NCBI GenBank assembly: GCA_019326865.1
Contig: GCA_019326865.1_4101.1
Length of the DNA: 64,000 nt
From: a phage
Direction: 5' to 3' (one strand)
In this document: piece by piece, positions 261-16,337 of the stretch
Layout: every line of letters begins with the position of its first letter
Position numbering within the stretch: the stretch's first letter is position 1
Program-made: the position numbers and the translations under genes
Notes under the pieces: generated by a model
The model's database searches: none
What the model was told of the DNA's origin: nothing
What the model saw: only the letters and a program-made list of their open reading frames with translations

Positions 261-268
261 AAAATAGT

Positions 269-297
269 TTGACAATAGTTTTAAGTACTGCGATAAT
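269..297 (+). promoter_or_regulatory. sigma70-like promoter
   Basis: TTGACA-17nt-GATAAT; same cassette recurs at 6834. Confidence 0.55.
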
Positions 298-331
298 ACA
301 TACATCAACTACTGAATAGGAATAAAAAACA

Positions 332-559
332 ATGGCTATCGTAATCACTCGCGTAACTGGTACTACTGGCACTGCTTCAAATGTTGCTGTAATTACTAAT
401 AAGAAAGGTGCAGAATTACATTTTGCAATGGATAAATGGGCCGTTAATGAGTTTGGTCAGTGGGCAAGTGTAGCATACATTGAAACCTATCAAGTGCCAT
501 CGATTAGCTTAACTGATTTAGGTGTAGAACGTATCCTTTGCCTGGATGAATTAAATTAA
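332..559 (+). CDS. hypothetical protein (75 aa)
   Basis: ORF track; SD AGGAAT upstream; promoter 269-297. Confidence 0.6.
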   Translation: MAIVITRVTGTTGTASNVAVITNKKGAELHFAMDKWAVNEFGQWASVAYIETYQVPSISLTDLGVERILCLDELN

Positions 560-567
560 AAAAGTAC

Positions 568-595
568 TTGCAAAGTAAATCGAATAAAGTATAAT
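568..595 (+). promoter_or_regulatory. sigma70-like promoter with 5' leader hairpin
   Basis: TTGCAA-16nt-TATAAT, followed by GGGGAGAA..TTCTCCCC stem-loop 608-628 and SD AAGAGGAAA. Confidence 0.55.
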
Positions 596-645
596 ACATT
601 ACATCAAGGGGAGAAAATGGTTCTCCCCACTAAGAGGAAACTAAT

Positions 646-789
646 ATGAAAACTTGTCAATGTGGTAAAAAATCTATTACTGGTTTGAAACGGGGCGTTG
701 CACTTTGCCAGTACCATTATAATTTACAAGTATGGGGTAAAGAATGGGCCGATCAGGTGGAAGCAATAAAGAAAGCAAAAAGTAAGTAA
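646..789 (+). CDS. hypothetical Cys-rich small protein (47 aa)
   Basis: hand-translated MKTCQCGKK...CQYHY...; SD AAGAGGAAA; below ORF-track cutoff. Confidence 0.45.
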   Translation: MKTCQCGKKSITGLKRGVALCQYHYNLQVWGKEWADQVEAIKKAKSK

Positions 790-869
790 AAAATATTATC
801 ACAGTACTATTGACATAGATTGATAGTACTGGCATAATAGATTTTATTAAAACAACTGAGGAAATTAAA
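790..869. repeat. promoter cassette copy 1 (about 80 bp, near-identical copies at 1081 and 3744)
   Basis: AAAATATTATCACAGTACTATTGACATAGATTGATAGTACTGGCATAATAG...GAGGAAATTAAA; contains TTGACA(810)-17-CATAAT. Confidence 0.8.
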
Positions 870-1082
870 ATGGCTATCATTACTAAAATCAAAGTAAACA
901 AAACACTGGTTAAGCTGGAACAAGTGAAAGAAGGTTATAAAGTATCTTGGTGCGGTATGTATCGGACGTTCGCAGATGTAGACGATGCAATCAATTACTA
1001 CACTGACACGGTTAAAAACTTTGTTCGTGCTGATGTGGTTATGGCAGTGGCAACATATAAAGCATCAAAAGAAAGTAAGTAA
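870..1082 (+). CDS. hypothetical protein (70 aa)
   Basis: ORF track; cassette promoter and SD GAGGAAA. Confidence 0.6.
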   Translation: MAIITKIKVNKTLVKLEQVKEGYKVSWCGMYRTFADVDDAINYYTDTVKNFVRADVVMAVATYKASKESK

Positions 1083-1164
1083 AAATATTATCACAGTACT
1101 ATTGACATAGATTGATAGTACTGGCATAATAGATTTTATCAAGACAACTAAGAGGAAATTAAAA
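1081..1164. repeat. promoter cassette copy 2
   Basis: near-identical to 790-869; TTGACA(1101)-17-CATAAT. Confidence 0.8.
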
Positions 1165-1509
1165 ATGGCTAACATCAATACTATAGCAGCACAAAATATC
1201 AACCTGTCTTCTGTTGAAGTTGTACACATTGCCGCCCGGCGTTGGTTCCAGGCGTCTTATGGTAATACGTATTTCTCTTTAACGGTAGATGTTGAAATCA
1301 ATGGCGAATTTATTGAAGTAGTAAACGTGCCGTTCCAATATGGCTACGGGGATCATTTTGACACTGTAGCAATGGAAGAATTTAGCAAGGTTATTAATAT
1401 GGAAGGTAAAGAGTTTTTACGCGGTTCTTATCTTTCCCGTTTTTGCCGTGATAATAATATCACTGTTTATAGTTCTGTTAGTGATGTTAAACGCAAAAAA
1501 GATCTTTAA
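1165..1509 (+). CDS. hypothetical protein (114 aa), paralog of 7526..7849
   Basis: ORF track; shares GNTY, YGYG and C-terminal DVKRKKD with 7526..7849. Confidence 0.65.
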   Translation: MANINTIAAQNINLSSVEVVHIAARRWFQASYGNTYFSLTVDVEINGEFIEVVNVPFQYGYGDHFDTVAMEEFSKVINMEGKEFLRGSYLSRFCRDNNITVYSSVSDVKRKKDL

Positions 1510-1589
1510 TTAGCTTTACTTTATGCAGATACTTTGATATAGTGTCTGCATAGGGGAAAGAAATTAAATCAACTTAAGAGGATAGTAAA

Positions 1590-1859
1590 ATGAAAAATAT
1601 CAGTACTTTAATCGATGCAGGTACACATGTTCGTCGGTCTATGGTTGCAACCAGTTCTACAAAACAAGTAGCGAGCGGTTATCTTGTATTTGTGCACGAT
1701 GGAAAACTCCTGGAACGTTCAATCAATTTTGATGTTAAAAACAATTGCCGTTTTATTATCTTTCGCCGTGAACAATACAAGATCGACATTCCAGCAAAGC
1801 CCATTAGCGGGGCGTACAACGTGCAATCATTGTTTGAGCGTCAACCATACACCTATTAA
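1590..1859 (+). CDS. hypothetical protein (89 aa)
   Basis: ORF track; SD AAGAGGA upstream; overlapping 1684..1911 frame rejected. Confidence 0.6.
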   Translation: MKNISTLIDAGTHVRRSMVATSSTKQVASGYLVFVHDGKLLERSINFDVKNNCRFIIFRREQYKIDIPAKPISGAYNVQSLFERQPYTY

Positions 1860-1910
1860 TCAAAACATCGTTAGCGGTCGATTTAGGCCGCTTATACTGG
1901 GGATTATATA

Positions 1911-2183
1911 ATGAATACTAATCAAGTACTGAATGAGATTGAAAGCATCATTAAACCGATGAAGCGTACTGATGCAATGTTAACACCGGAAGAATGCCGC
2001 CTATATGAGCGTTATAGCGTCGAACAAGTCCAGGAAATGGCTATGGCTATCCCTGCCGTTCAACAGCCTGAGAATGCGTCACAGGACGTTACAGGGGATT
2101 ATAACATCAATCCAGTACTAGGGAAGATTACACCAATTACCGAAGAAGAAAAAGACTACTTAAGCCAGTACTTAAAAGGTTAA
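1911..2183 (+). CDS. hypothetical protein (90 aa)
   Basis: ORF track; tightly packed after previous gene. Confidence 0.55.
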   Translation: MNTNQVLNEIESIIKPMKRTDAMLTPEECRLYERYSVEQVQEMAMAIPAVQQPENASQDVTGDYNINPVLGKITPITEEEKDYLSQYLKG

Positions 2184-2188
2184 TTAAT

Positions 2189-2398
2189 ATGCTTACTGTA
2201 CAGGATAAGATCGACATCTTAAAGGTTAATATGTATGTGATTGATGCAGATCCTGAAAAAGTATTTGCATACGATGATTCTAATCGTAGTCCTTTTTATT
2301 GTAGTCATGTAGTTGGATATGTGCCGTTATCGTATGTTATCGAAAGAGTGGTTGATTCAGCATACAAACATTTTTTAGAAAATAGTACTTGCAATTAG
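2189..2398 (+). CDS. hypothetical protein (69 aa)
   Basis: ORF track. Confidence 0.5.
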   Translation: MLTVQDKIDILKVNMYVIDADPEKVFAYDDSNRSPFYCSHVVGYVPLSYVIERVVDSAYKHFLENSTCN

Positions 2399-2416
2399 TT
2401 TTTAGTACTGTATAAT
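2389..2416 (+). promoter_or_regulatory. sigma70-like promoter with 5' leader hairpin
   Basis: TTGCAA-16nt-TATAAT; GGGGGG..TTCTCCCC hairpin 2429-2448. Confidence 0.5.
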
Positions 2417-2466
2417 GTTTTACATGAAGGGGGGAAATGATTCTCCCCAATAACAGGAGAAACAAA

Positions 2467-2619
2467 ATGAAACAATACAACGCTCGGTTTGATGTTACTA
2501 TCGGCAACGGCAAAGGTCAATTCTCTTTCAGTGCTCGTAAGAGTTATACAGAAAACTTCTTGCGTAATTGTGCACTGACCGCCGCACAAATTAAACATTA
2601 TTTTCAGGCTAAAAAATGA
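2467..2619 (+). CDS. hypothetical small protein (50 aa)
   Basis: start moved from track ATG 2437 (inside hairpin loop) to ATG after SD AGGAGAAAC. Confidence 0.5.
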   Translation: MKQYNARFDVTIGNGKGQFSFSARKSYTENFLRNCALTAAQIKHYFQAKK

Positions 2620-2705
2620 AATCATTAGCTTATTATAGCTCGGCCCTGGTCGGTGCATTGATCGCGGCATTGTTAGTAGCTTATCTATTCTTTATGGTGA
2701 TTTAA
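2616..2705 (+). CDS. hypothetical hydrophobic peptide (29 aa)
   Basis: hand-translated MKSLAYYSSALVGALIAALLVAYLFFMVI; ATGA-coupled to upstream gene; single TM-like helix. Confidence 0.3.
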   Translation: MKSLAYYSSALVGALIAALLVAYLFFMVI

Positions 2706-2843
2706 ATGAATCCTAACGGTATAATTTACAGTACTCCTAAAACTAAAGCAGATAAAGCGGAAGCACGTAAAGCGAAAGTAAAGGAGTACATCAAGCAAGG
2801 TATGACACGAAAGGCGGCGATTCTAAAAGCTAAAAATAAATGA
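2706..2843 (+). CDS. hypothetical basic small protein (45 aa)
   Basis: hand-translated MNPNGIIYSTPKTKADKAEARKAK...; directly follows previous stop. Confidence 0.35.
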   Translation: MNPNGIIYSTPKTKADKAEARKAKVKEYIKQGMTRKAAILKAKNK

Positions 2844-2975
2844 AAAAAAGTGGTTGACTTCGGTCAGCCATTTTGCTATTATATATTCATTGAGAGATAG
2901 CTCACTAGCCCACAGGGTGCGGGAGTGTATCTATTATATAAGTATTGAGTACTGAAAACTATTTTAAAAGTACAT
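2844..2975. repeat. intergenic element R copy 1 (terminator-like hairpin + promoter + conserved core)
   Basis: hairpin TGGTTGAC-TTCG-GTCAGCCA with flanking A/T runs; TTGACT(2854)-17-TATTAT; core CTAGCCCACAGGGTGCGGGAGTGTATC. Confidence 0.75.
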
Positions 2976-2986
2976 GTATAAAGTAC

Positions 2987-3014
2987 TTGCAAACTATCTC
3001 AATTGGCGTATAAT
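2987..3014 (+). promoter_or_regulatory. sigma70-like promoter with 5' leader hairpin
   Basis: TTGCAA-16nt-TATAAT; AGGGGAAA..TTTCCCCT hairpin 3028-3046. Confidence 0.55.
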
Positions 3015-3065
3015 GTTTTACATCGAGAGGGGAAACGGTTTCCCCTAGTAATAAGGAATAAAATC

Positions 3066-3407
3066 ATGACTATTGCAATTGTACAATCTAACTTTGAAAA
3101 TGAAATCATCGCCCAAGCACTGCGTTTAAATGATGGTCGGGCCGAAATTAATTACGGTTTCAATTCAGGCGGTTGTGAAAAATATCAGTACTTTATAACT
3201 GCTGATGGCGGTGTCCTGGGTATTAATACAGTTATTGTAAACATTCAGAAAATTAATTTCAATGATCCAGACGATAGCCAGTTTTACATTGTAGGCGTAG
3301 ACGTGAACTATGAGGATGACTCACTAACTGATGATTACACTGGCGAGAAGTTAGAAAGTGCATACGGTGAAGATGATTATCAGTCAGTACCGGAAGATTT
3401 TGAATAA
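3066..3407 (+). CDS. hypothetical acidic protein (113 aa)
   Basis: start moved from track 3003 to ATG after SD AAGGAAT; acidic C-terminus. Confidence 0.6.
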   Translation: MTIAIVQSNFENEIIAQALRLNDGRAEINYGFNSGGCEKYQYFITADGGVLGINTVIVNIQKINFNDPDDSQFYIVGVDVNYEDDSLTDDYTGEKLESAYGEDDYQSVPEDFE

Positions 3408-3421
3408 TATTAAAAAATAGT

Positions 3422-3449
3422 TTGACAATAGATTATAGTACTGTATAAT
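3422..3449 (+). promoter_or_regulatory. sigma70-like promoter with double leader hairpin
   Basis: TTGACA-16nt-TATAAT; two stem-loops (GGGAAGTTTTAAAAACTTCCC and GGGAGAATAGTTCTCCCC) before SD. Confidence 0.55.
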
Positions 3450-3531
3450 AGTTTACATCAAGGGCGACGGGAAGTTTTAAAAACTTCCCTATAGGGAGAA
3501 TAGTTCTCCCCACTAACAGAGAGAAAACAAA

Positions 3532-3744
3532 ATGGCTAATATCTGCACTGTACTGAAAAATGCAAAACAAGTTTTATTTTCTGATCACGATCATTTAAAC
3601 AAGGATATTACTGGCGTTCGGAATATCAAAGATGTAAAACGTGTTATGGGTATCTATTGCAATATGAAACGTGTCGGCACGTTCGGTAATAAATTTCTAT
3701 ACCAGGCGGGGGATTACAATTTTACACTGACTATCATTAACTAA
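3532..3744 (+). CDS. hypothetical protein (70 aa)
   Basis: ORF track; SD AGAGAGAAA. Confidence 0.6.
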   Translation: MANICTVLKNAKQVLFSDHDHLNKDITGVRNIKDVKRVMGIYCNMKRVGTFGNKFLYQAGDYNFTLTIIN

Positions 3745-3823
3745 AAATATTATCACAGTACTATTGACATAGATTGATAGTACTGGCATAATAGATTTTA
3801 TTAAAACAACTGAGGAAATTAAA
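3744..3823. repeat. promoter cassette copy 3
   Basis: near-identical to 790-869; TTGACA(3764)-17-CATAAT. Confidence 0.8.
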
Positions 3824-4003
3824 ATGGCTATCATCGCAAAAACTGAAATCATCGGCCTGGATTCTATCATCATGACGTTTGAAGATCAAAAAGGTATGTA
3901 TGTAGTTTCCTATGGTGATTATGTTCGGGAGTATGAAACGGTAGACGAAGCCTTTGAAAGTTACATTCGCCAGGTGAATAAAGCATACGACGATTACCGC
4001 TAA
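3824..4003 (+). CDS. hypothetical protein (59 aa)
   Basis: hand-translated MAIIAKTEIIGLD...DDYR; same cassette and N-terminal MAII as 870..1082. Confidence 0.5.
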   Translation: MAIIAKTEIIGLDSIIMTFEDQKGMYVVSYGDYVREYETVDEAFESYIRQVNKAYDDYR

Positions 4004-4030
4004 AATATATTACCAGTACTATCAAAGCTA

Positions 4031-4058
4031 TTGACAACGTTTGATAGTACTGTATAAT
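4031..4058 (+). promoter_or_regulatory. sigma70-like promoter
   Basis: TTGACA-16nt-TATAAT. Confidence 0.55.
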
Positions 4059-4104
4059 AAGTTTTATCAACTGTAGTTAACTTAACAAAAGAGAGAGAAA
4101 CAAA

Positions 4105-4248
4105 ATGATCGCACTGGATTCATTCATCGATGCAGTTCTGGCAAAAACTGGCGAGGATCTGACCGCAGAACAATACGCGATGATCGAGCAATGCCAGCAA
4201 GACGGTAAATCGGTGAAAGATACTGTTAAGATTATCCGCAAGATGTAA
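4105..4248 (+). CDS. hypothetical small protein (47 aa)
   Basis: hand-translated MIALDSFIDAVLAKTGEDL...; SD AGAGAGAGAAA; followed by hairpin AGCCCA..TGGGCT. Confidence 0.45.
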   Translation: MIALDSFIDAVLAKTGEDLTAEQYAMIEQCQQDGKSVKDTVKIIRKM

Positions 4249-4354
4249 GATTATAAGCCCATTAGTTAACGCTGGTGGGCTTTAATCATTTACCCTATAC
4301 AATGCCAGTACTAAACCGTTTATCTCGTTAGAATGCATTACAGGACGTTTAACA

Positions 4355-4552
4355 ATGATTAGCATGAAATCAGTACAAAAACAAATAGAAACATTATCAA
4401 AAATTAAACGTAAACAGTACTCATTAGAATATAATATCAATGGTAACTATCATCTAATGAAAGAGAATAATTTTATCGTCATTGATGAATCATTGCAAAT
4501 TATTAGTATAGTACTGAAAGCATTAATTAATGATAGAAAAAGGTTAAAATAA
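4355..4552 (+). CDS. hypothetical protein (65 aa)
   Basis: ORF track; no strong promoter seen. Confidence 0.4.
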   Translation: MISMKSVQKQIETLSKIKRKQYSLEYNINGNYHLMKENNFIVIDESLQIISIVLKALINDRKRLK

Positions 4553-4809
4553 TGGCAGTAGGATTCGCGAAAGATGGAGCCGAGCAAGATGAGATTAACG
4601 CAGTTATTCAAGCCGCCGTTAACCACGCTAGAAAGCAAATTAACGCACAAATAGAATCACTGATACATTGCCTCGACTGCGGCGATAAAATCCCTGAGAA
4701 TCGCCGACAGGCTGTTAAGGGATGTAAGTACTGCATAACCTGCCAGGAAGATCATGATAGTACTTTTAAACGAGATCCGCGTAATTGTTGGCATAGATCT
4801 ATGAGATAA
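4552..4809 (+). CDS. TraR/DksA-type C4 zinc-finger protein
   Basis: CLDCGDKIPENRRQAVKGCKYCITCQ = C-x2-C-x17-C-x2-C typical of TraR/DksA fingers. Confidence 0.55.
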   Translation: MAVGFAKDGAEQDEINAVIQAAVNHARKQINAQIESLIHCLDCGDKIPENRRQAVKGCKYCITCQEDHDSTFKRDPRNCWHRSMR

Positions 4810-4816
4810 AAAGTAA

Positions 4817-4844
4817 TTGACAGTACTGAAAGATAGTGTATAAT
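4817..4844 (+). promoter_or_regulatory. sigma70-like promoter
   Basis: TTGACA-16nt-TATAAT. Confidence 0.55.
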
Positions 4845-4873
4845 GTTTTATATCTTAACTGAGGATAGAAATC

Positions 4874-5230
4874 ATGGGAATACAACATATCACGCTGACC
4901 ACTGACAATGGCGAGATCACTGGTTATCAAGTACAGGGCAAAGTAGCACAATTGCAGTACTGGTTTGTTAAACGTGGAATCATTGCACCGGATCTTGATT
5001 ATGACCGTGTAGCGTTTATTGATTCTCTTTATGTTGATCCTGAAAGTCGGGGCAATGGTGAAGGTAACGAATTAATGAATGCCTTTATTGATGCCGCCGA
5101 TGATTCAGATTGTATCATTTTAGAATGCGATACGGGAGAAGATAACGCCTTCAATCTTAAAGAATGGTATGAAGGTTTCGGATTCGAAGTACTGATCGAT
5201 AGTGAATATCCTATCATGATTTTATCATAG
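4874..5230 (+). CDS. small GNAT-family acetyltransferase-like protein
   Basis: VDPESRGNGEGNELM resembles GNAT motif A (R-G-x-G-x-G); NAFNLKEWYEGFGF resembles motif B. Confidence 0.5.
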   Translation: MGIQHITLTTDNGEITGYQVQGKVAQLQYWFVKRGIIAPDLDYDRVAFIDSLYVDPESRGNGEGNELMNAFIDAADDSDCIILECDTGEDNAFNLKEWYEGFGFEVLIDSEYPIMILS

Positions 5231-5244
5231 TACTAAAAAAGTAA

Positions 5245-5272
5245 TTGACAGTACTATCAGATAGTATATAAT
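5245..5272 (+). promoter_or_regulatory. sigma70-like promoter with 5' leader hairpin
   Basis: TTGACA-16nt-TATAAT; AGGGGAA..TTCCCCT hairpin 5283-5302. Confidence 0.55.
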
Positions 5273-5319
5273 GTTTTACATAGAGGGGAAACATCTTCCC
5301 CTACTAAGAGGAAAGAAAA

Positions 5320-5508: not shown

Positions 5509-5535
5509 TATTAATTTAATAGAGGATAACAATAA

Positions 5536-5859
5536 ATGTACATTCATACTACTATCACAAAGGAAGTCCGTTGCCAGTTCGAAAGTATTCCGGGCGTATG
5601 TTTCATCACTGGTACGTTTTCCCCTGGTGATCGTGATAATCCAGTACTGTTACAGTTACGCCATCCATTATGGGATAAAGCATTTGATCTACCGTTGAAT
5701 GAATTCGCAACTACTGCTGAAAAGTACATTAAAAATATTCGCGAGAATGATCGACTATTCATTAATGCTTTTAGTGATTCCGCGTTAAGCGAGATCCACG
5801 GCGTATTGGTTGCAATCATGGAATCAATGGAGAAAACTAAATTCAAACAAGGTGAATAA
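5536..5859 (+). CDS. hypothetical protein (107 aa)
   Basis: ORF track; SD AGAGGATAA. Confidence 0.6.
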   Translation: MYIHTTITKEVRCQFESIPGVCFITGTFSPGDRDNPVLLQLRHPLWDKAFDLPLNEFATTAEKYIKNIRENDRLFINAFSDSALSEIHGVLVAIMESMEKTKFKQGE

Positions 5860-5865
5860 AAACTA

Positions 5866-5893
5866 TTGACAATGTAATCTAGTACTGTATAAT
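5866..5893 (+). promoter_or_regulatory. sigma70-like promoter with 5' leader hairpin
   Basis: TTGACA-16nt-TATAAT; GGGGAGAAATGATTCTCCC hairpin. Confidence 0.55.
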
Positions 5894-5943
5894 AAGTTAC
5901 ATGAAGGGGAGAAATGATTCTCCCTACTAAGAGGAAAGAAAAA

Positions 5944-6156
5944 ATGCAAGGTCAACTAATCGTTCGTAAATGGTCTGATACTAATGAAAAACCGTGGGAT
6001 GTACAATACATCGGACCGGATGGGGTATCACGTTATCAGCCTGGCGTAACGCATAGTACTGAGCAATATGCCGCCGCTCATCGTGAACGCCTGTTAGAAT
6101 CTATGCAACAGGGTTTAGGTGAAAAATTCATTCAAGATCATTGGCTGAAAGATTAA
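5944..6156 (+). CDS. hypothetical protein (70 aa)
   Basis: start moved from track 5914 (ATG in hairpin loop) to ATG after SD AAGAGGAAAG. Confidence 0.55.
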   Translation: MQGQLIVRKWSDTNEKPWDVQYIGPDGVSRYQPGVTHSTEQYAAAHRERLLESMQQGLGEKFIQDHWLKD

Positions 6157-6164
6157 AAAGTACT

Positions 6165-6191
6165 TGTGTAGTATAGAAAATAAAGTATAAT
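6165..6191 (+). promoter_or_regulatory. sigma70-like promoter with 5' leader hairpin
   Basis: TTGTGT-15nt-TATAAT; GGAAGGGGAATAGTTCCCCTCC hairpin. Confidence 0.45.
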
Positions 6192-6242
6192 GTTTAATAC
6201 AGGAAGGGGAATAGTTCCCCTCCTAACAAAAAGGAAAGTAAC

Positions 6243-6416: not shown

Positions 6417-6562
6417 AAGAATTTTTATTCGAAGTAGTTTTTATTGGTGTAAGTAGTCACCAATTGATTCGCTCAAGTGGTTACAATGTTTGCCAGGCAT
6501 GGAATAACATTAAACAAATGTACCCGAACGCTATCACATATCGCAACCCAAAACAAGTTTAA
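6413..6562 (+). CDS. hypothetical protein (49 aa)
   Basis: hand-translated MKEFLFEVVFIGVSSHQ...; ATGA-coupled to upstream ORF. Confidence 0.35.
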   Translation: MKEFLFEVVFIGVSSHQLIRSSGYNVCQAWNNIKQMYPNAITYRNPKQV

Positions 6563-6570
6563 AAATAATT

Positions 6571-6705
6571 AAAAAAAGGATTGACTTCGGTCAGTCCTTT
6601 TTGCTATTATATATTCATTGAGAGATAGCTCACTAGCCCACAGGGTGCGGGAGTGTATCTATTATATGTTGGTGGGTGTATTATCTAGTACTGAAAACTA
6701 TTTGA
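6571..6705. repeat. intergenic element R copy 2
   Basis: hairpin GGATTGAC-TTCG-GTCAGTCC; TTGACT(6581)-18-TATTAT; conserved core as in copy 1. Confidence 0.75.
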
Positions 6706-6715
6706 TAAAAAGTAC

Positions 6716-6743
6716 TTGCATTGTACTTAGAATCAAGTATAAT
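6716..6743 (+). promoter_or_regulatory. sigma70-like promoter driving an ORF-less structured leader
   Basis: TTGCAT-16nt-TATAAT; followed by about 80 nt with nested inverted repeats and no ORF before the next promoter. Confidence 0.45.
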
Positions 6744-6833
6744 GTTTTACATCAGGACAGGGAACGAAATAAGTAACTTCCCGTTAAGTAGCCCAGGAGT
6801 AAGGCATACGAAAAACTCCCCTGATAAAATAGT

Positions 6834-6862
6834 TTGACAATAGTTTTAAGTACTGATAAAAT
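6834..6862 (+). promoter_or_regulatory. sigma70-like promoter
   Basis: TTGACA-17nt-TAAAAT; cassette homologous to 269-330. Confidence 0.5.
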
Positions 6863-6894
6863 AATCACATCAACTACTGATAAGGAAACATAAA

Positions 6895-7170
6895 ATGCGG
6901 GTTCTTCTGACAGCTAACGAAATCGAGCAAGTACTTACTACTAACCTGGAACAATGGAAACGTGAAGCAGATATCCAGGCGGTTCAATTGTTAAATGAGA
7001 AGTTAACGCCGGATGATTTAAGTAAGATTGTAGATCCTCAATTCTACGAAGATATTCACGACACCGCGTTAAGCGTCGAGGATGTACTAGATAAACACTA
7101 CATTGATACTAATTTACAGGGTTACGGTCGTAAAAATTTTATTACTATTCACGACATTTACAATAATTAA
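6895..7170 (+). CDS. hypothetical protein (91 aa)
   Basis: ORF track; SD AAGGAAAC. Confidence 0.6.
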   Translation: MRVLLTANEIEQVLTTNLEQWKREADIQAVQLLNEKLTPDDLSKIVDPQFYEDIHDTALSVEDVLDKHYIDTNLQGYGRKNFITIHDIYNN

Positions 7171-7173
7171 GTA

Positions 7174-7201
7174 TTGACAAAGTATCTTAGTACTGTATAA
7201 T
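7174..7201 (+). promoter_or_regulatory. sigma70-like promoter with 5' leader hairpin
   Basis: TTGACA-16nt-TATAAT; GAGGGGAATGGTTCCCCTC hairpin; cassette repeated at 7443. Confidence 0.6.
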
Positions 7202-7256
7202 AGTTTACATCAAGTGAGGGGAATGGTTCCCCTCCTAACAAAGAGAGAAATAAAAA

Positions 7257-7439
7257 ATGGCTAAGTGCACTATCTGTAAGAAAGAAATAGTATTAGTTCC
7301 AAGTGCCCGTGAGCGTGCAGCTCGGTTCGGTGGCAAAGCGTCAGACTATACAAAAATGTTTACTACTCATGCAAATTGCCAGGTAGCAAAACGTTCACAA
7401 GAAAGCGTAGAATTAATGCGTAAACTTTCCAAAAAATAA
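7257..7439 (+). CDS. hypothetical Cys-containing protein (60 aa)
   Basis: ORF track; CTIC...H..C possible zinc ligands. Confidence 0.55.
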   Translation: MAKCTICKKEIVLVPSARERAARFGGKASDYTKMFTTHANCQVAKRSQESVELMRKLSKK

Positions 7440-7442
7440 GTA

Positions 7443-7470
7443 TTGACAAAGTATCTTAGTACTGTATAAT
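7443..7470 (+). promoter_or_regulatory. sigma70-like promoter with 5' leader hairpin
   Basis: TTGACA-16nt-TATAAT; near-identical to 7174 cassette. Confidence 0.6.
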
Positions 7471-7525
7471 AGATTACATCAAGTGAGGGGAAACGGTTCC
7501 CCTCCTAACAAAGAGAGAAATAAAA

Positions 7526-7849: not shown

Positions 7850-7871
7850 TAGAATCCATTTAAAGTACTAT

Positions 7872-7900
7872 TTGACATTACACAGATAGTACTTTATAAT
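7872..7900 (+). promoter_or_regulatory. sigma70-like promoter
   Basis: TTGACA-17nt-TATAAT. Confidence 0.55.
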
Positions 7901-7935
7901 AGACTCTAACTTGTAGTATTAACTTAACTAATAGG

Positions 7936-8340
7936 ATGTATACCATGATTACTAAATTCTACGCTACCCGTGAAGCTGCCCGTATTGTTGCACGCGAGGA
8001 AGGAGCGGCATTTAAAGACATGGGCAAAGATGCACCGAAAGGCCAACGCTGGAGCGTACAGTTCAAAGAAATCTCTGATATTGTGAATTCACCTGAACCA
8101 GTACTGACAGCAGCAGAACAGAAGAAAGCTGATGAACTGGCGGCAATTCTTAACGCTCAAGATGAATTCGTCGAGGGTGCTGATATCCAGGTTGTAGTAA
8201 ATTCGAATGCATGGACTCACGCGGATCATCTGGCTAACCTGAAGCGTCCAAGCGTATTGATTCGCAACCATAAAGAGATCCGACACGACCGCAAGGGCAA
8301 CCGTGTTACTGTATACAGTAAACGCCGCCAGGTTATCTAA
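7936..8340 (+). CDS. hypothetical protein (134 aa)
   Basis: ORF track; alternative start ATG 7945; followed by terminator. Confidence 0.6.
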   Translation: MYTMITKFYATREAARIVAREEGAAFKDMGKDAPKGQRWSVQFKEISDIVNSPEPVLTAAEQKKADELAAILNAQDEFVEGADIQVVVNSNAWTHADHLANLKRPSVLIRNHKEIRHDRKGNRVTVYSKRRQVI

Positions 8341-8362
8341 TACCTAGCAGTACTAACAACAC

Positions 8363-8388
8363 GGCGGGATCTGTTCCCGCCTTTTTTA
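8363..8388 (+). terminator. rho-independent terminator
   Basis: GGCGGGA-TCTGT-TCCCGCC followed by TTTTTT. Confidence 0.7.
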
Positions 8389-8402
8389 CAGGATAAACTA
8401 AA

Positions 8403-8657
8403 ATGATTAAGGTAAAACTATCTAAAGATAATATCTTGCGGGTACACTATAAAGCCCCTCAGAGAATCATCACAAAGGCCGTACAGCTTGCGAATGAGTT
8501 TATTAATGGTAATCTATTACCTAGGAAGTTAAGCAACGGAAAACTGCGTGTAATCGATGTAGACACTAACAACAGAATAGTAATAGAGAATACCGGAAAG
8601 ATAAACCTATATGAACACCAACAATATAATAAGAAAATAAAACTAATTAGTCGTTGA
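8403..8657 (+). CDS. hypothetical protein (84 aa)
   Basis: ORF track. Confidence 0.55.
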   Translation: MIKVKLSKDNILRVHYKAPQRIITKAVQLANEFINGNLLPRKLSNGKLRVIDVDTNNRIVIENTGKINLYEHQQYNKKIKLISR

Positions 8658-8711
8658 CAGTACTCAAATGTTTTAGTACTATATATCTATACCAACACGG
8701 AGAGAAACAAA

Positions 8712-8930
8712 ATGAAATTATCTAAAATCGAAAAGAAAACTATTGACGTAGCTATCCAACATGGTTACACCTTTCGTAATGATTTACATTTTACCAATTT
8801 TCAACAAGGGTATCGTACTATTAAAAAACTAATTGACAAAGGTTTATTAGTTAAAGTAGACAACGGCAACGGCGTTGAATATCAACCAACACAGGACGCA
8901 TTTAATTTTAAGAAATATAATATTATCTAA
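8712..8930 (+). CDS. hypothetical protein (72 aa), possible winged-helix DNA binder
   Basis: ORF track; promoter TTGACA 8654; IKKLIDKGLLVKVDNGNG wing-like segment (weak). Confidence 0.5.
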   Translation: MKLSKIEKKTIDVAIQHGYTFRNDLHFTNFQQGYRTIKKLIDKGLLVKVDNGNGVEYQPTQDAFNFKKYNII

Positions 8931-8987
8931 TTGACAGTACTCAAATGTTTTAGTACTATATCTATACCAACACAGGAAAAAAACAAA

Positions 8988-9572
8988 ATGCGTAATTATA
9001 CTAAATTCATCCGTACACTGTCAGAAATGGAAACCAACAAAGAGATCTTGACAGCTTGTCGGTTAGCTGGTCTGGAGATCATCGGTGCGGGGTCTTCCCG
9101 TATTGTATTCGCTTTAAATGATCGGTTAGTGATTAAGGTCGCGAATTGTGATGCGGGTGTAGAACAAAATGAAACAGAATGTAAAGTATGGAATTTTTTA
9201 GATTATGACCGACCTCAGTTGAAACAGTTCTTTGCTAAAGTACATATGCATTTAAGCGATCCTGATAATATGTTTATTGTTATGGATCGGTTGAGTACTG
9301 CAAGTAAAGGCAGTGTAAAGCACGTTAACGCGTGCAACGAATTAAAGTACAATATTAAACGTAATGCAATCGAACGCCAGCACCGCTTTGCTGATGCACT
9401 ACAACACGTCGATGATACATTATCAACACTAACGATCAGAGATATCAGAAAACAGAATATCGGACAGGATCGAAATGGACTGATTAAAGTACTTGATTAT
9501 GGTTTAACCCGCAATATCTGGAATCAGTACTATAAAAAGCGTGATGTAAAAGCCGTAACTATAACACGATAA
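8988..9572 (+). CDS. compact protein-kinase-like protein (194 aa)
   Basis: start moved from track TTG 8931; Gly-loop IGAGSSRIVF, VIKV lysine, catalytic-loop-like RDIRKQN, DFG-like LDYG. Confidence 0.5.
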   Translation: MRNYTKFIRTLSEMETNKEILTACRLAGLEIIGAGSSRIVFALNDRLVIKVANCDAGVEQNETECKVWNFLDYDRPQLKQFFAKVHMHLSDPDNMFIVMDRLSTASKGSVKHVNACNELKYNIKRNAIERQHRFADALQHVDDTLSTLTIRDIRKQNIGQDRNGLIKVLDYGLTRNIWNQYYKKRDVKAVTITR

Positions 9573-9580
9573 AAAAGATT

Positions 9581-9705
9581 AAAAAAGGGATTGACTCCGG
9601 TCAGTCCCTTTGCTATTATATATTCATTGAGAGATAGCTCACTAGCCCACAGGGTGCGGGAGTGTATCTATTATATAAGTATTGAGTACTGAAAACTATT
9701 TTTAA
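9581..9705. repeat. intergenic element R copy 3
   Basis: hairpin GGGATTGAC-TCCG-GTCAGTCCC; TTGACT(9591)-17-TATTAT; conserved core. Confidence 0.75.
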
Positions 9706-9713
9706 AAAGTACT

Positions 9714-9740
9714 TGCATTGTACTTAGATTCAAGTATAAT
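9714..9740 (+). promoter_or_regulatory. sigma70-like promoter with 5' leader hairpin
   Basis: TTGCAT-15nt-TATAAT; imperfect GGGGGAACGTCCC hairpin; SD AAGGAAT. Confidence 0.55.
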
Positions 9741-9787
9741 GTTTTATATCGAGAGGGGGAACGTCCCTGATAATAAGGAATAAAATC

Positions 9788-10009
9788 ATGACTACAATGA
9801 CTTGCATTTACGCTTCCAATCTTCTGAATGATGCTGTTTTTAATGTTGATTCAGAATATCAATGTTATCGGGATGAAAATAAAAAAGTTTTTGTAGTTGA
9901 TAATAATGGTTTCCATATTGAATTACAATCCGGCTTCACTGGTGTTGATGGTAAATCAGTATGGGGCGTACAGGATGATAAAGGCACATATCATTTTAAA
10001 CGTAATTAA
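9788..10009 (+). CDS. hypothetical protein (73 aa)
   Basis: ORF track; SD AAGGAAT. Confidence 0.6.
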   Translation: MTTMTCIYASNLLNDAVFNVDSEYQCYRDENKKVFVVDNNGFHIELQSGFTGVDGKSVWGVQDDKGTYHFKRN

Positions 10010-10012
10010 GTA

Positions 10013-10040
10013 TTGACAAAGTATCTTAGTACTGTATAAT
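10013..10040 (+). promoter_or_regulatory. sigma70-like promoter with double leader hairpin
   Basis: TTGACA-16nt-TATAAT; same double hairpin as at 3460-3510. Confidence 0.6.
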
Positions 10041-10124
10041 AGTTTACATCAAGGGCAACGGGAAGTTTTAAAAACTTCCCTATAGGGAGAACAGTTCTCC
10101 CCGATACTAAAAGGAAACAAAAAT

Positions 10125-10397
10125 ATGTCTAGCTACTCCGCTACTATGATCATTAAAGATATGAACGGTAATCCTACTGCTGCTGGTGGATCATTTGGAA
10201 ACATTAACTTAGATGGTCGGTTAACCATGCAATCAGCCATCAATGCAGCGAAAGAAGTTTTTAAGAATGAATGCACTGTAAGTAAGCTGGATTATATGGG
10301 ATTCGCTATCGAGAAAACTAATCGTTTTGTGAACTACAAAAATCCACTGATGATTGATACTAACCTGAAAGCTAACGAAGTGGAATACTTATTATGA
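10125..10397 (+). CDS. hypothetical protein (90 aa)
   Basis: ORF track; SD AAAGGAAAC. Confidence 0.6.
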   Translation: MSSYSATMIIKDMNGNPTAAGGSFGNINLDGRLTMQSAINAAKEVFKNECTVSKLDYMGFAIEKTNRFVNYKNPLMIDTNLKANEVEYLL

Positions 10398-10585
10398 CAG
10401 TTGAAGAAGTTAAAAAAGTACTGGCAGTTCTACGCTATCATAACCATTGCAAGGTGAAGAATGATTCTGATTATCTTGATTCATCCCTTGAGGAAGACAC
10501 ATTAAACGCAATAAGCTATATGCAAACATTATTAAAACGTATGACCGAAAAGAATAGACCGGACTATATCGGAAATAAAATTTAA
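10394..10585 (+). CDS. hypothetical protein (63 aa)
   Basis: ORF track; ATGA-coupled. Confidence 0.5.
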   Translation: MTVEEVKKVLAVLRYHNHCKVKNDSDYLDSSLEEDTLNAISYMQTLLKRMTEKNRPDYIGNKI

Positions 10586-10593
10586 AAAGTACT

Positions 10594-10620
10594 TGCATTG
10601 TAGTTAGATTAACGTATAAT
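10594..10620 (+). promoter_or_regulatory. sigma70-like promoter with 5' leader hairpin
   Basis: TTGCAT-15nt-TATAAT; GAGGGGAAATGGTTTCCCCTC hairpin. Confidence 0.55.
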
Positions 10621-10671
10621 GTTTTATATCGAGAGGGGAAATGGTTTCCCCTCAAGTCCAGGAGATACACA

Positions 10672-10935
10672 ATGAACACTATCGAAATCACTATCAATGC
10701 TCACGTATACGACAACGTAGTACTGCAAACTACTATGACCGCTAATGATACCAGTACTTTGCGGAATACTGTTATTAGTGCTGTATGTGCCGCTATCGGT
10801 GATGTCGCCCTGGAAAATGCAAAACACGTAAACGATGGTTTCACTATGTGCAAGCGTGATAACGCAAAACATATCATCGTAGAAGGTTACGGCGGTGTAG
10901 AATATAATGTTTATATGAAAAAAGTACTTGCATAA
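10672..10935 (+). CDS. hypothetical protein (87 aa)
   Basis: ORF track; SD CAGGAGA; 3' end overlaps next promoter. Confidence 0.6.
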   Translation: MNTIEITINAHVYDNVVLQTTMTANDTSTLRNTVISAVCAAIGDVALENAKHVNDGFTMCKRDNAKHIIVEGYGGVEYNVYMKKVLA

Positions 10936-10955
10936 TAACTAAAACAAAGTATAAT
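10928..10955 (+). promoter_or_regulatory. sigma70-like promoter with 5' leader hairpin
   Basis: TTGCAT-16nt-TATAAT; GGGGGAGATATCCTCCCCC hairpin. Confidence 0.55.
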
Positions 10956-11002
10956 GTTTTGCATAGGGGGAGATATCCTCCCCCACTAAAAGGAGTAATA
11001 AA

Positions 11003-11227
11003 ATGGCTAACTTTGATGAACTGATGCGGGAAGTAGCTAACCTGGCAGAAGAGAAGAAATCATTCGATTCTATCTATAACACCTCTTACCGTGATTCAGT
11101 ACTGGCATGTAACCAGGATCAAAAAGATGAACTAATCGCCACCTATTATGAAGCATGGAAGTACTACCGACAATGGGAGAAAGAAGAAAGTGAGTCTACC
11201 ATTGACGGCCTCAATAATCTAATCTAA
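11003..11227 (+). CDS. hypothetical protein (74 aa)
   Basis: ORF track; SD AAAGGAG. Confidence 0.6.
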   Translation: MANFDELMREVANLAEEKKSFDSIYNTSYRDSVLACNQDQKDELIATYYEAWKYYRQWEKEESESTIDGLNNLI

Positions 11228-11245
11228 AGTTTTATTTCAGTACTA

Positions 11246-11274
11246 TTGACATAGATTGATAGTACTGATATGAT
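11246..11274 (+). promoter_or_regulatory. sigma70-like promoter
   Basis: TTGACA-17nt-TATGAT; partial copy of the 790 cassette. Confidence 0.45.
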
Positions 11275-11302
11275 AACTTTACTATCTACAAGGGGAAACA
11301 TC

Positions 11303-11560
11303 ATGGAACAATTCACACAATATCGGGTAAATCCTCAAGCTATGGCATACGTAGAAGACCATAAAACGTTACCAGTACAAACACCAATTAAAGGCCATAT
11401 CTATCGTGCAATGTCATGGAATCCGGCCCAGTATGGCTATAACACCGTAGCCGTGGGCATGTACTGCGGCAATGGTGAATGGTTTGATCCTAACAATCCG
11501 ATTGCACTTGATAGTACTGAAAAAATGAAATGGGCCGACTACATCGAAGATATTTCATAA
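11303..11560 (+). CDS. hypothetical protein (85 aa)
   Basis: start moved from track 11270 (ATG inside -10 region) to ATG after SD AAGGGGAAA. Confidence 0.55.
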   Translation: MEQFTQYRVNPQAMAYVEDHKTLPVQTPIKGHIYRAMSWNPAQYGYNTVAVGMYCGNGEWFDPNNPIALDSTEKMKWADYIEDIS

Positions 11561-11567
11561 AAATTAT

Positions 11568-11595
11568 TTGACAGTACTAACCAGTAATGTATAAT
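11568..11595 (+). promoter_or_regulatory. sigma70-like promoter with 5' leader hairpin
   Basis: TTGACA-16nt-TATAAT; GCGGGGGAATAGTTCTCCCGC hairpin. Confidence 0.55.
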
Positions 11596-11650
11596 GTTTT
11601 ACATAGAGCGGGGGAATAGTTCTCCCGCCAATAGTTTGGAGTAAAACATT

Positions 11651-11851
11651 ATGTCTATCGCTATCGCCCTGGTCGAAGTACTGAAAGAAGCTAAAGCCAA
11701 CCTTATCGATGTACAGATTAAGGAATTGCAAAATGGCTTAATCGGCTGTACTTGTACCGCTGGTGGCCCGTCAGACTATCGGGAATTCGAATCACTTGAA
11801 TCGATGGTCCGTTATCTTACAATCATCGTAGAAGATTGGAGAATCATCTAA
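11651..11851 (+). CDS. hypothetical protein (66 aa)
   Basis: ORF track; SD TTTGGAG. Confidence 0.55.
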   Translation: MSIAIALVEVLKEAKANLIDVQIKELQNGLIGCTCTAGGPSDYREFESLESMVRYLTIIVEDWRII

Positions 11852-11865
11852 CAAAAAAAAAGAAT

Positions 11866-12005
11866 AAAAAGGGATTGACTCCGGTCAGTCCCTTTGCTAT
11901 TATATACGCATAGACAAAAACTAGCCCACAGGGTGCATAGGTGTATCTTAAATATATAGTTAATAACGGTGAGTAACTATCTGCTGGTGGGGTGAAAACT
12001 ATTAA
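11866..12005. repeat. intergenic element R copy 4 (diverged)
   Basis: same hairpin and TTGACT(11875)-17-TATTAT; central part diverged, keeps CTAGCCCACAGGGTGC. Confidence 0.7.
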
Positions 12006-12014
12006 TAAAAAGTA

Positions 12015-12043
12015 TTGACAAAGTATATCAGTACTGCAATAAT
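12015..12043 (+). promoter_or_regulatory. sigma70-like promoter
   Basis: TTGACA-17nt-AATAAT. Confidence 0.45.
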
Positions 12044-12097
12044 GTATCTCGTAGGGCGGCAATGGTGCGACGGTCCACAAAGTTAGGAGATTCACAA

Positions 12098-12430
12098 ATG
12101 AGTACTTCAATCGCTATCGTTAAAGCTTTCATCCGTACCAACGTTTCATCTGTATTCATTGACGGACTGGATCGGGAAGTAGAATACTCAATCATTATCG
12201 CACAAACTGCAAACGGTGCTCGGTACATCCTTAATAATAGTGAAGCAAATCACTACTACTTCACTAAAGCCACTGGCTTTAAACGCATCGATGCTGATGT
12301 AGTATACGCTAAGATGAATAAGCTGGTAGACAAGATTAACGCGAAAGGTACTATCGATTTACAGTACTGGACCGAAACCGATCCAGAATATGGATCTCAC
12401 CGCTACCTGAATCCAGGTATTAAAATGTAA
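12098..12430 (+). CDS. hypothetical protein (110 aa)
   Basis: start moved from track 12062 to ATG after SD AGGAGA. Confidence 0.6.
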   Translation: MSTSIAIVKAFIRTNVSSVFIDGLDREVEYSIIIAQTANGARYILNNSEANHYYFTKATGFKRIDADVVYAKMNKLVDKINAKGTIDLQYWTETDPEYGSHRYLNPGIKM

Positions 12431-12437
12431 AAAGTAC

Positions 12438-12465
12438 TTGCATAGTACTTAGATTTAAGTATAAT
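12438..12465 (+). promoter_or_regulatory. sigma70-like promoter with 5' leader hairpin
   Basis: TTGCAT-16nt-TATAAT; GAGGGGGAAATGGTTCTCCCTCC hairpin. Confidence 0.55.
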
Positions 12466-12519
12466 GTTTTTCATAGAGAGGGGGAAATGGTTCTCCCTCC
12501 TAAATTAAGGAGTTTTATC

Positions 12520-16333: not shown

Positions 16334-16337
16334 GCAG

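Follow-up and report, generated by a model that had tools for sequence, protein, structure and literature searches.

Recurrent promoter cassettes in the terminal repeat of an Asteriusvirus jumbo coliphage as probable substrates of early-gene gain, loss and exchange

Promoter cassettes of the terminal-repeat region

The stretch of phage DNA analysed here (64,000 nucleotides of contig GCA_019326865.1_4101.1 in assembly GCA_019326865.1, hereafter the window) opens with a run of small genes interspersed with promoter cassettes, i.e., recurring intergenic sequences that combine a sigma70-type promoter with a leader and a Shine-Dalgarno (SD) site. With the first 12.5 kb as query, 113 phage records were matched at 80–95% identity, nearly all of them Asteriusvirus jumbo phages of Escherichia or Salmonella (including 121Q, PBECO4, G17 and ph0011). 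All of these matches were fragmented, and the relatives covered only 30–64% of the region, 64% being the maximum reached by any record. The pieces shared with Asteriusvirus phages are 90–93% identical.

Window positions 318–13,320 aligned with positions 7,607–21,525 of phage vB_Ec-M-J, which lie within its annotated “Direct Terminal Repeats” (1–21,525), and the offset of 8,204 between this genome and window positions 10008–14000 places the end of the repeat near window position 13,320. The record of phage G17 starts at the equivalent of window position 13,350, and a terminal repeat of 20,993 bp has been verified for phage fEgEco12 by PhageTerm and restriction digests (PMC13070987). The region therefore coincides with the annotated or experimentally determined long direct terminal repeat of its Asteriusvirus relatives. 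Judged by this homology, window positions 1 to ~13,320 are the inner ~13 kb of a ~21 kb direct terminal repeat of an Asteriusvirus (121Q/PBECO4-like) jumbo coliphage, and the repeat extends leftward beyond window position 1.

The repeat part of the window holds ~40 small, mostly orphan genes, all on the + strand. Ten of the encoded proteins were compared with Pfam; six had no Pfam family, and the families found among the others were a DksA/TraR zinc finger (g17), a GNAT acetyltransferase (g18), a DUF7247 and a weak kinase match (g30). The early host-takeover clusters of T5 (pre-early region) and SPO1 are alike in that they carry many small genes in the same orientation behind strong promoters for the host RNA polymerase and are situated within a long direct terminal repeat at the genome end, but there is no sequence relationship to them.

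A systematic listing yielded 33 sigma70-type promoter cassettes between window positions 35 and 12,460 (Table 1). A consensus scan found ten sites matching the sigma70 consensus at 12 of 12 positions and eight matching at 11 of 12, with A-tracts upstream, on the + strand of 13.4 kb, as opposed to zero 12/12 matches in the following 20 kb. Most of the genes have such a cassette in front of them, and the intergenic spacers measure 54–130 nt on the gene map. From 5′ to 3′, the order of elements is an A-tract (resembling an UP element), a –35 box (TTGACA or TTGCA), a spacer of 16–17 nt, a –10 box (TATAAT), a conserved start region with the motif (G/A)TTTACATCRAG, often a hairpin, and an SD site similar to ACTAAGAGGAAA that is followed by ATG.

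The cassettes fall into at least seven sequence types plus chimeras. Types A to F are recognised by the hallmarks CAGTACTATTGACATAG... (A), AAAATAGTTTGACAATAG (B), AAGTATTGACAAAGTATCTTAGTACTG (C), AAAAAGTACTTGCA (D), TTGACAGTACT (E) and TTGACAGTACTCAAATG... (F), and type R by a –35 box that lies within a terminator-like hairpin. Identity between cassettes reaches 80/80 nt and covers the A-tract, spacer, transcribed leader, G/C hairpin and SD site. Ungapped similarity spans 26–45 nt upstream and 13–65 nt downstream of the start of the –10 box, and is thus not limited to the promoter hexamers. Among the 528 pairs of real cassettes, 20 were at least 0.80 identical in 65-nt windows, compared with a 99th percentile of 0.63 and a maximum of 0.66 for shuffled sequences.

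An initial sequence-only reading of the window had described the early region as a mosaic of a few cassette types, of which it named four. The mosaic of repeated cassettes was borne out, but the number of types was too low. In its first type, 790–869 and 3744–3823 are indeed identical (80/80), 1081–1164 matches both at 78 positions, and 11237–11266 is a partial copy (30/30); in its second, 262–330 and 6826–6894 agree at 59 of 69 positions; and the 31-mer GTATTGACAAAGTATCTTAGTACTGTATAAT of its third type recurs exactly at 7171, 7440 and 10010. The 24-mer of the fourth type also recurs (exactly at 6708 and 9705, and with one mismatch at 10585 and 12430), albeit 1–2 nt away from where it had been placed. 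The extent of 262–12470 given to the region proved too narrow, as the region starts before window position 1 and ends at ~13.3 kb.

The hairpin of the 5′ untranslated region (5′UTR) pairs a G-run with a C-run (e.g., GGGGAGAA-loop-TTCTCCCC) and is present with a dG of –10 kcal/mol or lower in 14 of the 29 ordinary (non-R) cassettes, with values from –11 to –21. A strong hairpin is lacking from 13 cassettes (types A, B, F and others), so the structure is common rather than universal. It starts 12–14 nt past the –10 box and occurs as 63 distinct variants in the nine genomes compared below, with compensatory changes in the two arms (e.g., GCGGGAA/TTCCCGC and GTGGGGAA/TTCCCCAC). With the hairpins defined by Watson-Crick pairs only, G.T mismatches outnumbered A.C mismatches (32 vs. 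12), and this asymmetry favours a structure selected in the + strand RNA. Intrinsic termination was rejected as a function of these 5′UTR hairpins because they have no U-tract and the terminator scan was silent on them; the sites that did fit the terminator pattern were the four R hairpins, whose stem contains the –35 box TTGACT, and three others. The 5′UTR hairpin is probably an RNA-level leader structure that would stabilise or insulate the mRNA.

Table 1. Promoter cassettes of the terminal-repeat region in window coordinates (all on the + strand).
Span	Type	–10 box at	Downstream gene	Features
20..107	D	57	g1 (108-260)	AAAAAGTACTTGCA; –35 at 35
252..331	B	292	g2	AAAATAGTTTGACAATAG; –35 at 269; no hairpin
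546..645	D	590	g3	5′UTR hairpin GGGGAGAA..TTCTCCCC
789..869	A	833	g4	CAGTACTATTGACATAGATTGATAGTACTGGCATAAT; direct repeat with 1081-1164
1081..1164	A	1125	g5	
2367..2466	D-like	2411	g9	hairpin
2834..2969	R (element 1)	2877		terminator-like hairpin containing –35 TTGACT; –10 TATTAT; core GCCCAYNGGGTGC-N5-TGTATC
2965..3065	D	3009	g12	hairpin
3404..3531	chimeric	3444	g13	type B upstream half; double-hairpin leader
3743..3823	A	3787	g14	80/80 identical to 790-869
4010..4104	A-like (more distant)	4053	g15	perfect TTGACA-16-TATAAT
4799..4873	E	4839	g18	AAAAAGTAATTGACAGTACT; left partner in g18 indel
5227..5319	E	5267	g19	hairpin; right partner in g18 indel
5848..5943	C-like	5888	g21	hairpin
6142..6242	D-like	6186	g22	–35 TTGTGT; hairpin
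6561..6697	R (element 2)	6605		
6694..6833	D	6738		conserved non-coding leader of ~85 nt (6744-6830) in place of a gene
6817..6894	B	6857	g24	
7157..7256	C	7196	g25	AAGTATTGACAAAGTATCTTAGTACTGTATAAT; hairpin
7426..7525	C	7465	g26	hairpin
7850..7935	A-like (more distant)	7895	g27	perfect hexamers; 17-nt spacer
8640..8711	F	8677	g29	TTGACAGTACTCAAATGTTTTAGTACTAT
8917..8987	F	8954	g30	
9571..9706	R (element 3)	9614		
9691..9787	D	9735	g31	weaker hairpin
9996..10124	C (upstream half)	10035	g32	double-hairpin leader
10571..10671	D	10615	g34	hairpin
10906..11002	D	10950	g35	hairpin
11225..11302	A core (more distant)	11269	g36	core 30/30; other leader
11546..11650	E	11590	g37	hairpin
11855..11958	R (element 4)	11898		R′ core variant
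11993..12097	C-like	12038	g38	–10 AATAAT
12416..12519	D	12460	g39	hairpin; last before repeat end (~13,320)

Gene gain and loss between cassettes in related genomes

Window positions 1–14,000 aligned collinearly with six relatives, in blocks whose ends recurred at the same window positions, i.e., at the cassettes, and which often overlapped in that one window cassette aligned to two places in the relative. The window and eight relatives (ph0011, vB_Ec-M-J, G17, BF17, JNE01, CMSTMSU, 121Q and SD-6_S16) were then compared all-against-all, which revealed 34 clusters of insertions or deletions (indels), ~26 of them inside the terminal repeat. Eleven of these ~26 are flanked by direct repeats of 45–124 nt, and each such repeat is a complete promoter cassette. 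Five others have 12–31 nt of flanking homology at other punctuation, such as a ribosome-binding site (RBS) or A-tract (e.g., the 13-nt stop/RBS/start junction AGGTTAAAATAAT), and ~10 have 0–9 nt. Given that only 16% of random pairs of window cassettes reach 70% identity or more, the 11 of 26 cassette-flanked indels represent a clear excess. Moreover, only three adjacent cassette pairs are at least 80% identical (around g4, g25 and g29), and each of them encloses a gene whose presence varies among the relatives (Fisher p = 0.007).

Among the genes missing from a relative, g4 is absent from ph0011, where two type A cassettes are merged into one. Likewise, g25 is absent from 121Q (flanked by the cassettes 7157–7256 and 7426–7525, with a 97–103-nt repeat) and g29 from the Salmonella phage SD-6_S16 (flanked by 8640–8711 and 8917–8987, with an 85-nt repeat). 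Conversely, extra genes occur in the relatives at window cassettes. At 2367–2466, six of the eight relatives (ph0011, vB_Ec-M-J, G17, BF17, JNE01 and CMSTMSU, not 121Q or SD-6_S16) have an extra gene with a 72-nt repeat, while at 9996–10124 an extra gene of 405 nt lies between two type C cassettes in five relatives (48–99-nt repeat). Phage 121Q has two further extra genes, at 6817–6894 and at 11993–12097, with cassette repeats on both sides of 55 nt and 67–69 nt, respectively.

Five junctions were aligned by hand, i.e., those of g4, g18, g34 and the extra genes at 2376–2447 and 10008–10055. In each case the shorter genome has a single or chimeric cassette where the longer has two, and the flanks of this lone cassette match the two window copies; for g18 and g34 it is visibly chimeric. 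In G17 and BF17, which lack the GNAT gene g18, the left flank of the junction corresponds to the cassette at 4799 and the right flank to the leader of that at 5227. Gene g34 is flanked by the type D cassettes 10571–10671 and 10906–11002 and is absent from 121Q, whose one chimeric type D cassette is of the left type through TTGCATTGTA and of the right type from AAAACAAAG on, with the crossover in the spacer. The extra genes that ph0011 carries at 2376–2447 and 10008–10055 each lie between two copies of the local cassette.

The genes themselves also show a patchwork of alleles. Per-gene identity to ph0011 is 97–100% for most of g1–g20, but 77% for g8 and 88–90% for g21–g24. Gene g8 is 77% identical to four relatives vs. 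97% to 121Q, and g13 is 72% identical to G17 and vB_Ec-M-J vs. 93–98% to the others. Cassettes can depart from their orthologs on their own: the g14 cassette shows 94% identity with the g4 cassette of the same genome vs. 72–92% with orthologous g14 cassettes, and the g19 and g32 cassettes are only 66–82% identical to their orthologs while the genes are 92–98% identical (95–98% for g19). The cores of R elements 1, 2 and 3 (Table 1) are identical in the window, whereas the core at R locus 2 in all six relatives differs from that of the window (70–77% identity) and R locus 3 in the relatives has several substitutions vs. locus 1. Finally, the double-hairpin leader of the chimeric cassette 3404–3531 matches 10013–10124 in the type C cassette 9996–10124 (86% over 112 nt). 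For the R2 and R3 cores and the g14, g19 and g32 cassettes, such patterns indicate ectopic gene conversion or cassette replacement in the window lineage.

One of the ~10 indels with fewer than 10 nt of flanking homology lies at 8931–8990. Here a gene of 243 nt, located between g29 and g30, is missing in the window but present in all seven Asteriusvirus relatives whose sequence covers the site. The window junction, at 8987, falls exactly at the start codon, with the type F cassette fused to the ATG of g30 and ~4 nt of homology (AATG). The g29/g30 junction is a precise swap of the open reading frame (ORF) under a resident promoter.

Taken together, these data make it probable (roughly 80%) that the early cassettes of the Asteriusvirus terminal repeat act as portable, recombining homology, with genes gained, lost and swapped between the repeats. 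Host sigma70 RNA polymerase would read the cassettes, so that each gene would form its own early transcription unit, and direct repeats of 45–125 nt every 0.3–1 kb would provide the portable homology. Recombination between two cassettes would delete the gene between them, the simplest product being a circle with a single cassette and a single gene, and in the reverse reaction such a unit could be inserted at any resident cassette. Recombination with a co-infecting phage would swap alleles, and non-reciprocal exchange would homogenise cassettes within a genome. The repeats and how far they reach, the cassette-flanked indels, the chimeric junctions and the conversion events are shown by the sequences, and the circular intermediate and any particular recombination machinery are inferred. 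The sequence-only reading had already suggested that repeated promoters are substrates for homologous recombination that could shuffle early genes, and the comparison of gene order with relatives supports this idea through the 11 of ~26 cassette-flanked indels, the chimeric junctions, the mosaicism and the conversion.

Several points weigh against this conclusion. Over the whole window, adjacent cassette pairs are no more alike than random pairs (permutation p = 0.17). The ~10 indels with 0–9 nt of flanking homology, together with the five at other punctuation, imply that cassette recombination is one route among several. Whole-gene indels must end in intergenic DNA to survive, which biases breakpoints towards cassettes, and only the evidence from flanking repeats and chimeras is free of this bias. 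The indel counts come from nine related genomes and take no phylogeny into account, so that the events are only approximately independent. Promoter activity, early timing and start sites are predicted from the consensus. If transcription begins ~7 nt after the –10 box, the hairpin would lie 5–8 nt from the start, which is beyond the ideal for a classical 5′ stabiliser.

Some of these points would be expected if selection towards one optimal sigma70/UP/leader design accounted for the likeness of the cassettes, and if indels ended at cassettes simply because every gene has one. The single ground plan common to all types agrees with such selection, as do the non-significant adjacency test over all pairs and the ~10 of 26 indels without cassette homology. 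Nevertheless, the 95–100% identity over 80 nt includes spacer and flank positions without known promoter function, the chimeric cassettes sit exactly at deletion junctions, 11 indels lie between full-cassette repeats, and cassettes have been converted within one lineage while their orthologs differ. We consider selection alone highly improbable as an explanation.

The genes behind same-type cassettes bear on another possibility, namely that promoter-plus-gene units were duplicated in tandem and kept their cassettes while the coding parts diverged, i.e., paralogy rather than shuffling. As the sequence-only reading had stated, these genes are mostly unrelated, differing in sequence and length. 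It had named two paralog pairs as exceptions. The first, g5/g26 (at 1165 and 7526), was confirmed (30% identity, E = 5e-11), yet the two cassettes differ in type (A and C, respectively). The second, g4/g14 (at 870 and 3824), shares a type A cassette and first codons; it gave no BLASTP match, but a weak significant Smith-Waterman similarity (52 vs. 25 ± 5 for shuffles, p ~0.0005). Paralog families have also been reported for Rak2-like phages in the paper on the related jumbo phage vB_PcaM_CBB (Buttimer et al. 2017, PMC5259590). The g14 cassette, however, is nearer to the window's g4 cassette than to its orthologs, which fits recent conversion rather than old duplication, and the genes involved in indels between relatives are unrelated ones. 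Old duplication appears about as improbable a general cause as selection, and recombination between cassettes is retained as the preferred explanation.

AGTACT and other motifs of the window

The palindrome AGTACT occurs 202 times in the window vs. 21 expected (~9.5-fold). In coding sequence there are 144 copies, in all three frames, vs. 42 ± 5.6 after synonymous-codon shuffling, and the preferred context is CAGTACTG. Every non-R cassette (24–12496) contains AGTACT at –26/–29, –16 or –6/–7 relative to the –10 box. The sites are conserved among relatives at 86–99%, compared with 58–75% for hexamers of the same composition. Their distribution is patchy, with AGTACT almost absent at 14–18 kb and 20–28 kb (sites occur, e.g., at 18089, 18110, 18154 and 18182), and hardly any copies occur in the homologous rV5-like and phi92-like regions. 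A literature search found nothing linking AGTACT to jumbo phages. AGTACT may serve as a site of binding or of modification, or may label self DNA.

This motif raises the question of whether the likeness of the cassettes might be kept by an operator, i.e., AGTACT beside the –35 or –10 box serving a phage-specific factor, with recombination as a by-product. The fixed positions in every non-R cassette, the enrichment both overall and in coding sequence, the conservation and the lack of AGTACT in the homologous rV5-like and phi92-like cassettes all speak for such a factor. Most AGTACT copies, on the other hand, lie inside genes and far from promoters, so the motif is not promoter-specific; R cassettes are without it; and an operator leaves the 80-nt identities and the chimeric junctions unaccounted for. 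We regard this explanation, which is compatible with recombination between cassettes, as unlikely.

The E. coli Chi sequence (GCTGGTGG) was found seven times in the window vs. 0.37 expected, at 4271, 5413, 10182, 11759, 11983 and 59309 on the + strand and at 50665 on the – strand. Five of these copies lie in the terminal-repeat part (first 12 kb), all on the + strand. The repeat regions of relatives each hold 8–13 copies, for the most part on the + strand; in vB_Ec-M-J, one copy on the – strand lies 0.6 kb from the left genome end. As an idea, Chi might shield the linear ends from RecBCD and promote recombination in precisely this region.

Transposable (MITE-like) elements were considered as an identity for the cassettes and rejected, as there are no terminal inverted repeats or target duplications and the cassettes are always in register with a start codon.

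Downstream of each R promoter lies an invariant core, GCCCAYNGGGTGC-N5-TGTATC (2905–2940, 6633–6668, 9642–9677 and 11921–11956), which is kept at the four orthologous positions in all relatives and at a fifth site further upstream in the repeat. A hairpin RNA was rejected as its identity: the left arm differs wholly among variants while the core is fixed, pointing to conservation of sequence and not of structure. Searches of the whole window with Rfam at gathering thresholds gave no match (R cores included), and a tRNA scan found none.

Between a type D and a type B promoter, the window carries ~85 nt of non-coding DNA (6744–6830) of which each Asteriusvirus genome has two copies, 95–99% identical. 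The segment also occurs in several rV5-like and phi92-like coliphages, at 87–92% identity and before different genes. A structured small RNA was not upheld for it, with a single-sequence fold z-score of only –1.5 and no pair changed on both sides according to RNAalifold; one C:G to U:A pair seen by eye was counterbalanced by the disruption of the pair next to it. No Rfam match was obtained for 6560–6900 at E ≤ 1 either. The segment is a candidate for either an early small RNA or leader, or a site acting at the DNA level.

Two further features concern coding sequence. Just beyond the terminal repeat, window positions 13419–18010 hold a tandem array of more than 20 overlapping genes of ~70 aa that resemble paralogs (e.g., the motif ..NFQERYVNDWIWYLIEDI..). 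Indels among relatives within this array are flanked by repeats of coding sequence, which fits unequal crossing-over between paralogs rather than cassette recombination. The array has hardly any AGTACT. An unlisted ORF of 29 codons at 2616–2705 (MKSLAYYSSALVGALIAALLVAYLFFMVI) overlaps the g9 stop codon and abuts g11, and its product resembles a small membrane peptide.

Relation to known systems and to other coliphage families

Comparable elements have been described in T4-type phages (RB49/phi1, T4/PST and KVP40/nt-1) as promoter-early stem-loop (PeSL) cassettes (Arbiol et al. 2010, PMC2839356; Comeau et al. 2014, PMC4122927). Densely clustered in hyperplastic regions, each PeSL combines a strong sigma70-like promoter, preceded by AT-rich sequence, with a polyG/polyC stem-loop at a variable position and ends in the SD site and ATG of an orphan gene (PMC2839356). 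The indels and replacements that distinguish RB49 from phi1 (and the members of other phage pairs) are located at PeSLs, and mini-circles as well as promoter and terminator activity have been demonstrated (PMC2839356, PMC4122927).

Five defining features of PeSLs were looked for here and four were found. The 33 sites have predicted consensus sigma70 promoters with an AT-rich upstream region. An adjacent G-run/C-run stem-loop at variable position is present (downstream of the –10 box in 14 of 29 ordinary cassettes, and over the –35 box in the four R cassettes). The cassettes are intergenic, between a stop codon and the SD site and ATG of small orphan genes in a hyperplastic region. Junctions of indels and replacements between close relatives lie in cassettes, with full-cassette repeats at 11 of the ~26 indels. 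The fifth feature, occurrence in T4-type phages, does not apply, as the best matches are Asteriusvirus phages; it is a host-range or lineage feature, not a mechanistic one. PeSLs also fall into several sub-classes by stem-loop position, one of which overlaps the –35 box as the R elements do here.

There are differences as well. The present cassettes belong to an Asteriusvirus jumbo phage (with homology to rV5-like and phi92-like phages) rather than a T4-type phage, and they lie inside a long direct terminal repeat. Their hairpin is mostly transcribed, 12–14 nt after the –10 box, tolerant of G.U pairs and without a U-tract, whereas most PeSL hairpins lie between or over the hexamers and act as terminators. 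AGTACT in every ordinary cassette is particular to the present set.

In the jumbo phage vB_PcaM_CBB, a MEME search predicted 18 RpoD-like promoters with UP elements (PMC5259590). Like the present ones, these are sigma70-like, have UP-like elements and are concentrated ahead of short hypothetical genes, and some lie in the terminal repeat, but the paper describes no cassette families, hairpins or recombination role. The fEgEco12 paper does not discuss promoters (PMC13070987), and our literature search on Asteriusvirus and Rak2-like phages found no account of cassette families, of their role in recombination or of AGTACT enrichment. The PeSL authors drew an analogy to integron gene cassettes, in which single promoter-associated genes are units that can be inserted or excised at a standard junction. 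In contrast to integrons, there is no integrase or attC here, exchange apparently proceeds by general homologous recombination, and every unit comes with a promoter of its own.

Single early genes, delimited by parts of cassettes, recur in unrelated rV5-like and phi92-like coliphages at 67–91% nucleotide identity; the first search had returned these as weak matches to single genes in coliphages of ~145–150 kb from other lineages. Justusliebigvirus PHB05 matches window positions 7218–7516 at 88.8%, a stretch that extends from one cassette's hairpin across g25 as far as the SD site of the following cassette, and the Vequintavirinae phage A73 matches 261–785 at 83% (type B cassette, g2, type D cassette and g3). 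Seven further segments match at 72–92%. In both PHB05 and A73 the cassette plan is the same (A-tract, TTGACA-16-TATAAT, TTACATC, G/C hairpin and SD site), and homologous cassettes are present in the Vequintavirinae and the Stephanstirmvirinae. A blastn search with the type C cassette matched 123 records, with 7–20 places per Asteriusvirus genome and hits in other Rak2-like and many rV5-like and phi92-like phages; no T4-type phage was among the matches listed.

For g13 (3518–3738), matches at 83–85% to coliphage early genes and cassettes were also found in phages labelled as infecting Campylobacter (A150, A110a and B15) or Acinetobacter (ABPW7), with genomes of ~146–151 kb. Two of these records annotate the matching stretch as “phosphoribosylpyrophosphate synthetase”. 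All four records resemble rV5-like coliphage genomes whose host label or annotation is doubtful.

Tentatively, and with more doubt than confidence, one may go further and suppose that large coliphages of at least three unrelated groups (Asteriusvirus, rV5-like Vequintavirinae and phi92-like Stephanstirmvirinae) use the cassette as a standard junction format, which would let single early genes cross between families by ordinary homologous recombination. Under the same supposition, Asteriusvirus may also have written AGTACT, under purifying selection, into every cassette and across the sampled 64 kb for a lineage-specific factor involved in binding, in modification or in telling self from host DNA.

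The Asteriusvirus cassettes match the PeSLs already described, a result that is well supported and will not surprise specialists in phage genome evolution. It would extend PeSL-type modular gene shuffling from T4-type phages to jumbo phages of ~350 kb and to their terminal repeats. For annotation, the cassettes indicate where the early transcription units of 40 genes without a known function are likely to lie, and for phage engineering they mark natural points of insertion and deletion. They would also give a concrete reason why otherwise 90–95% identical Asteriusvirus isolates, several of which are under study for phage therapy or biocontrol, differ so markedly in their early or host-takeover genes. 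Finally, the sharing of cassette-bounded genes suggests a common reservoir of early genes to which unrelated coliphage families have access via a shared junction sequence.

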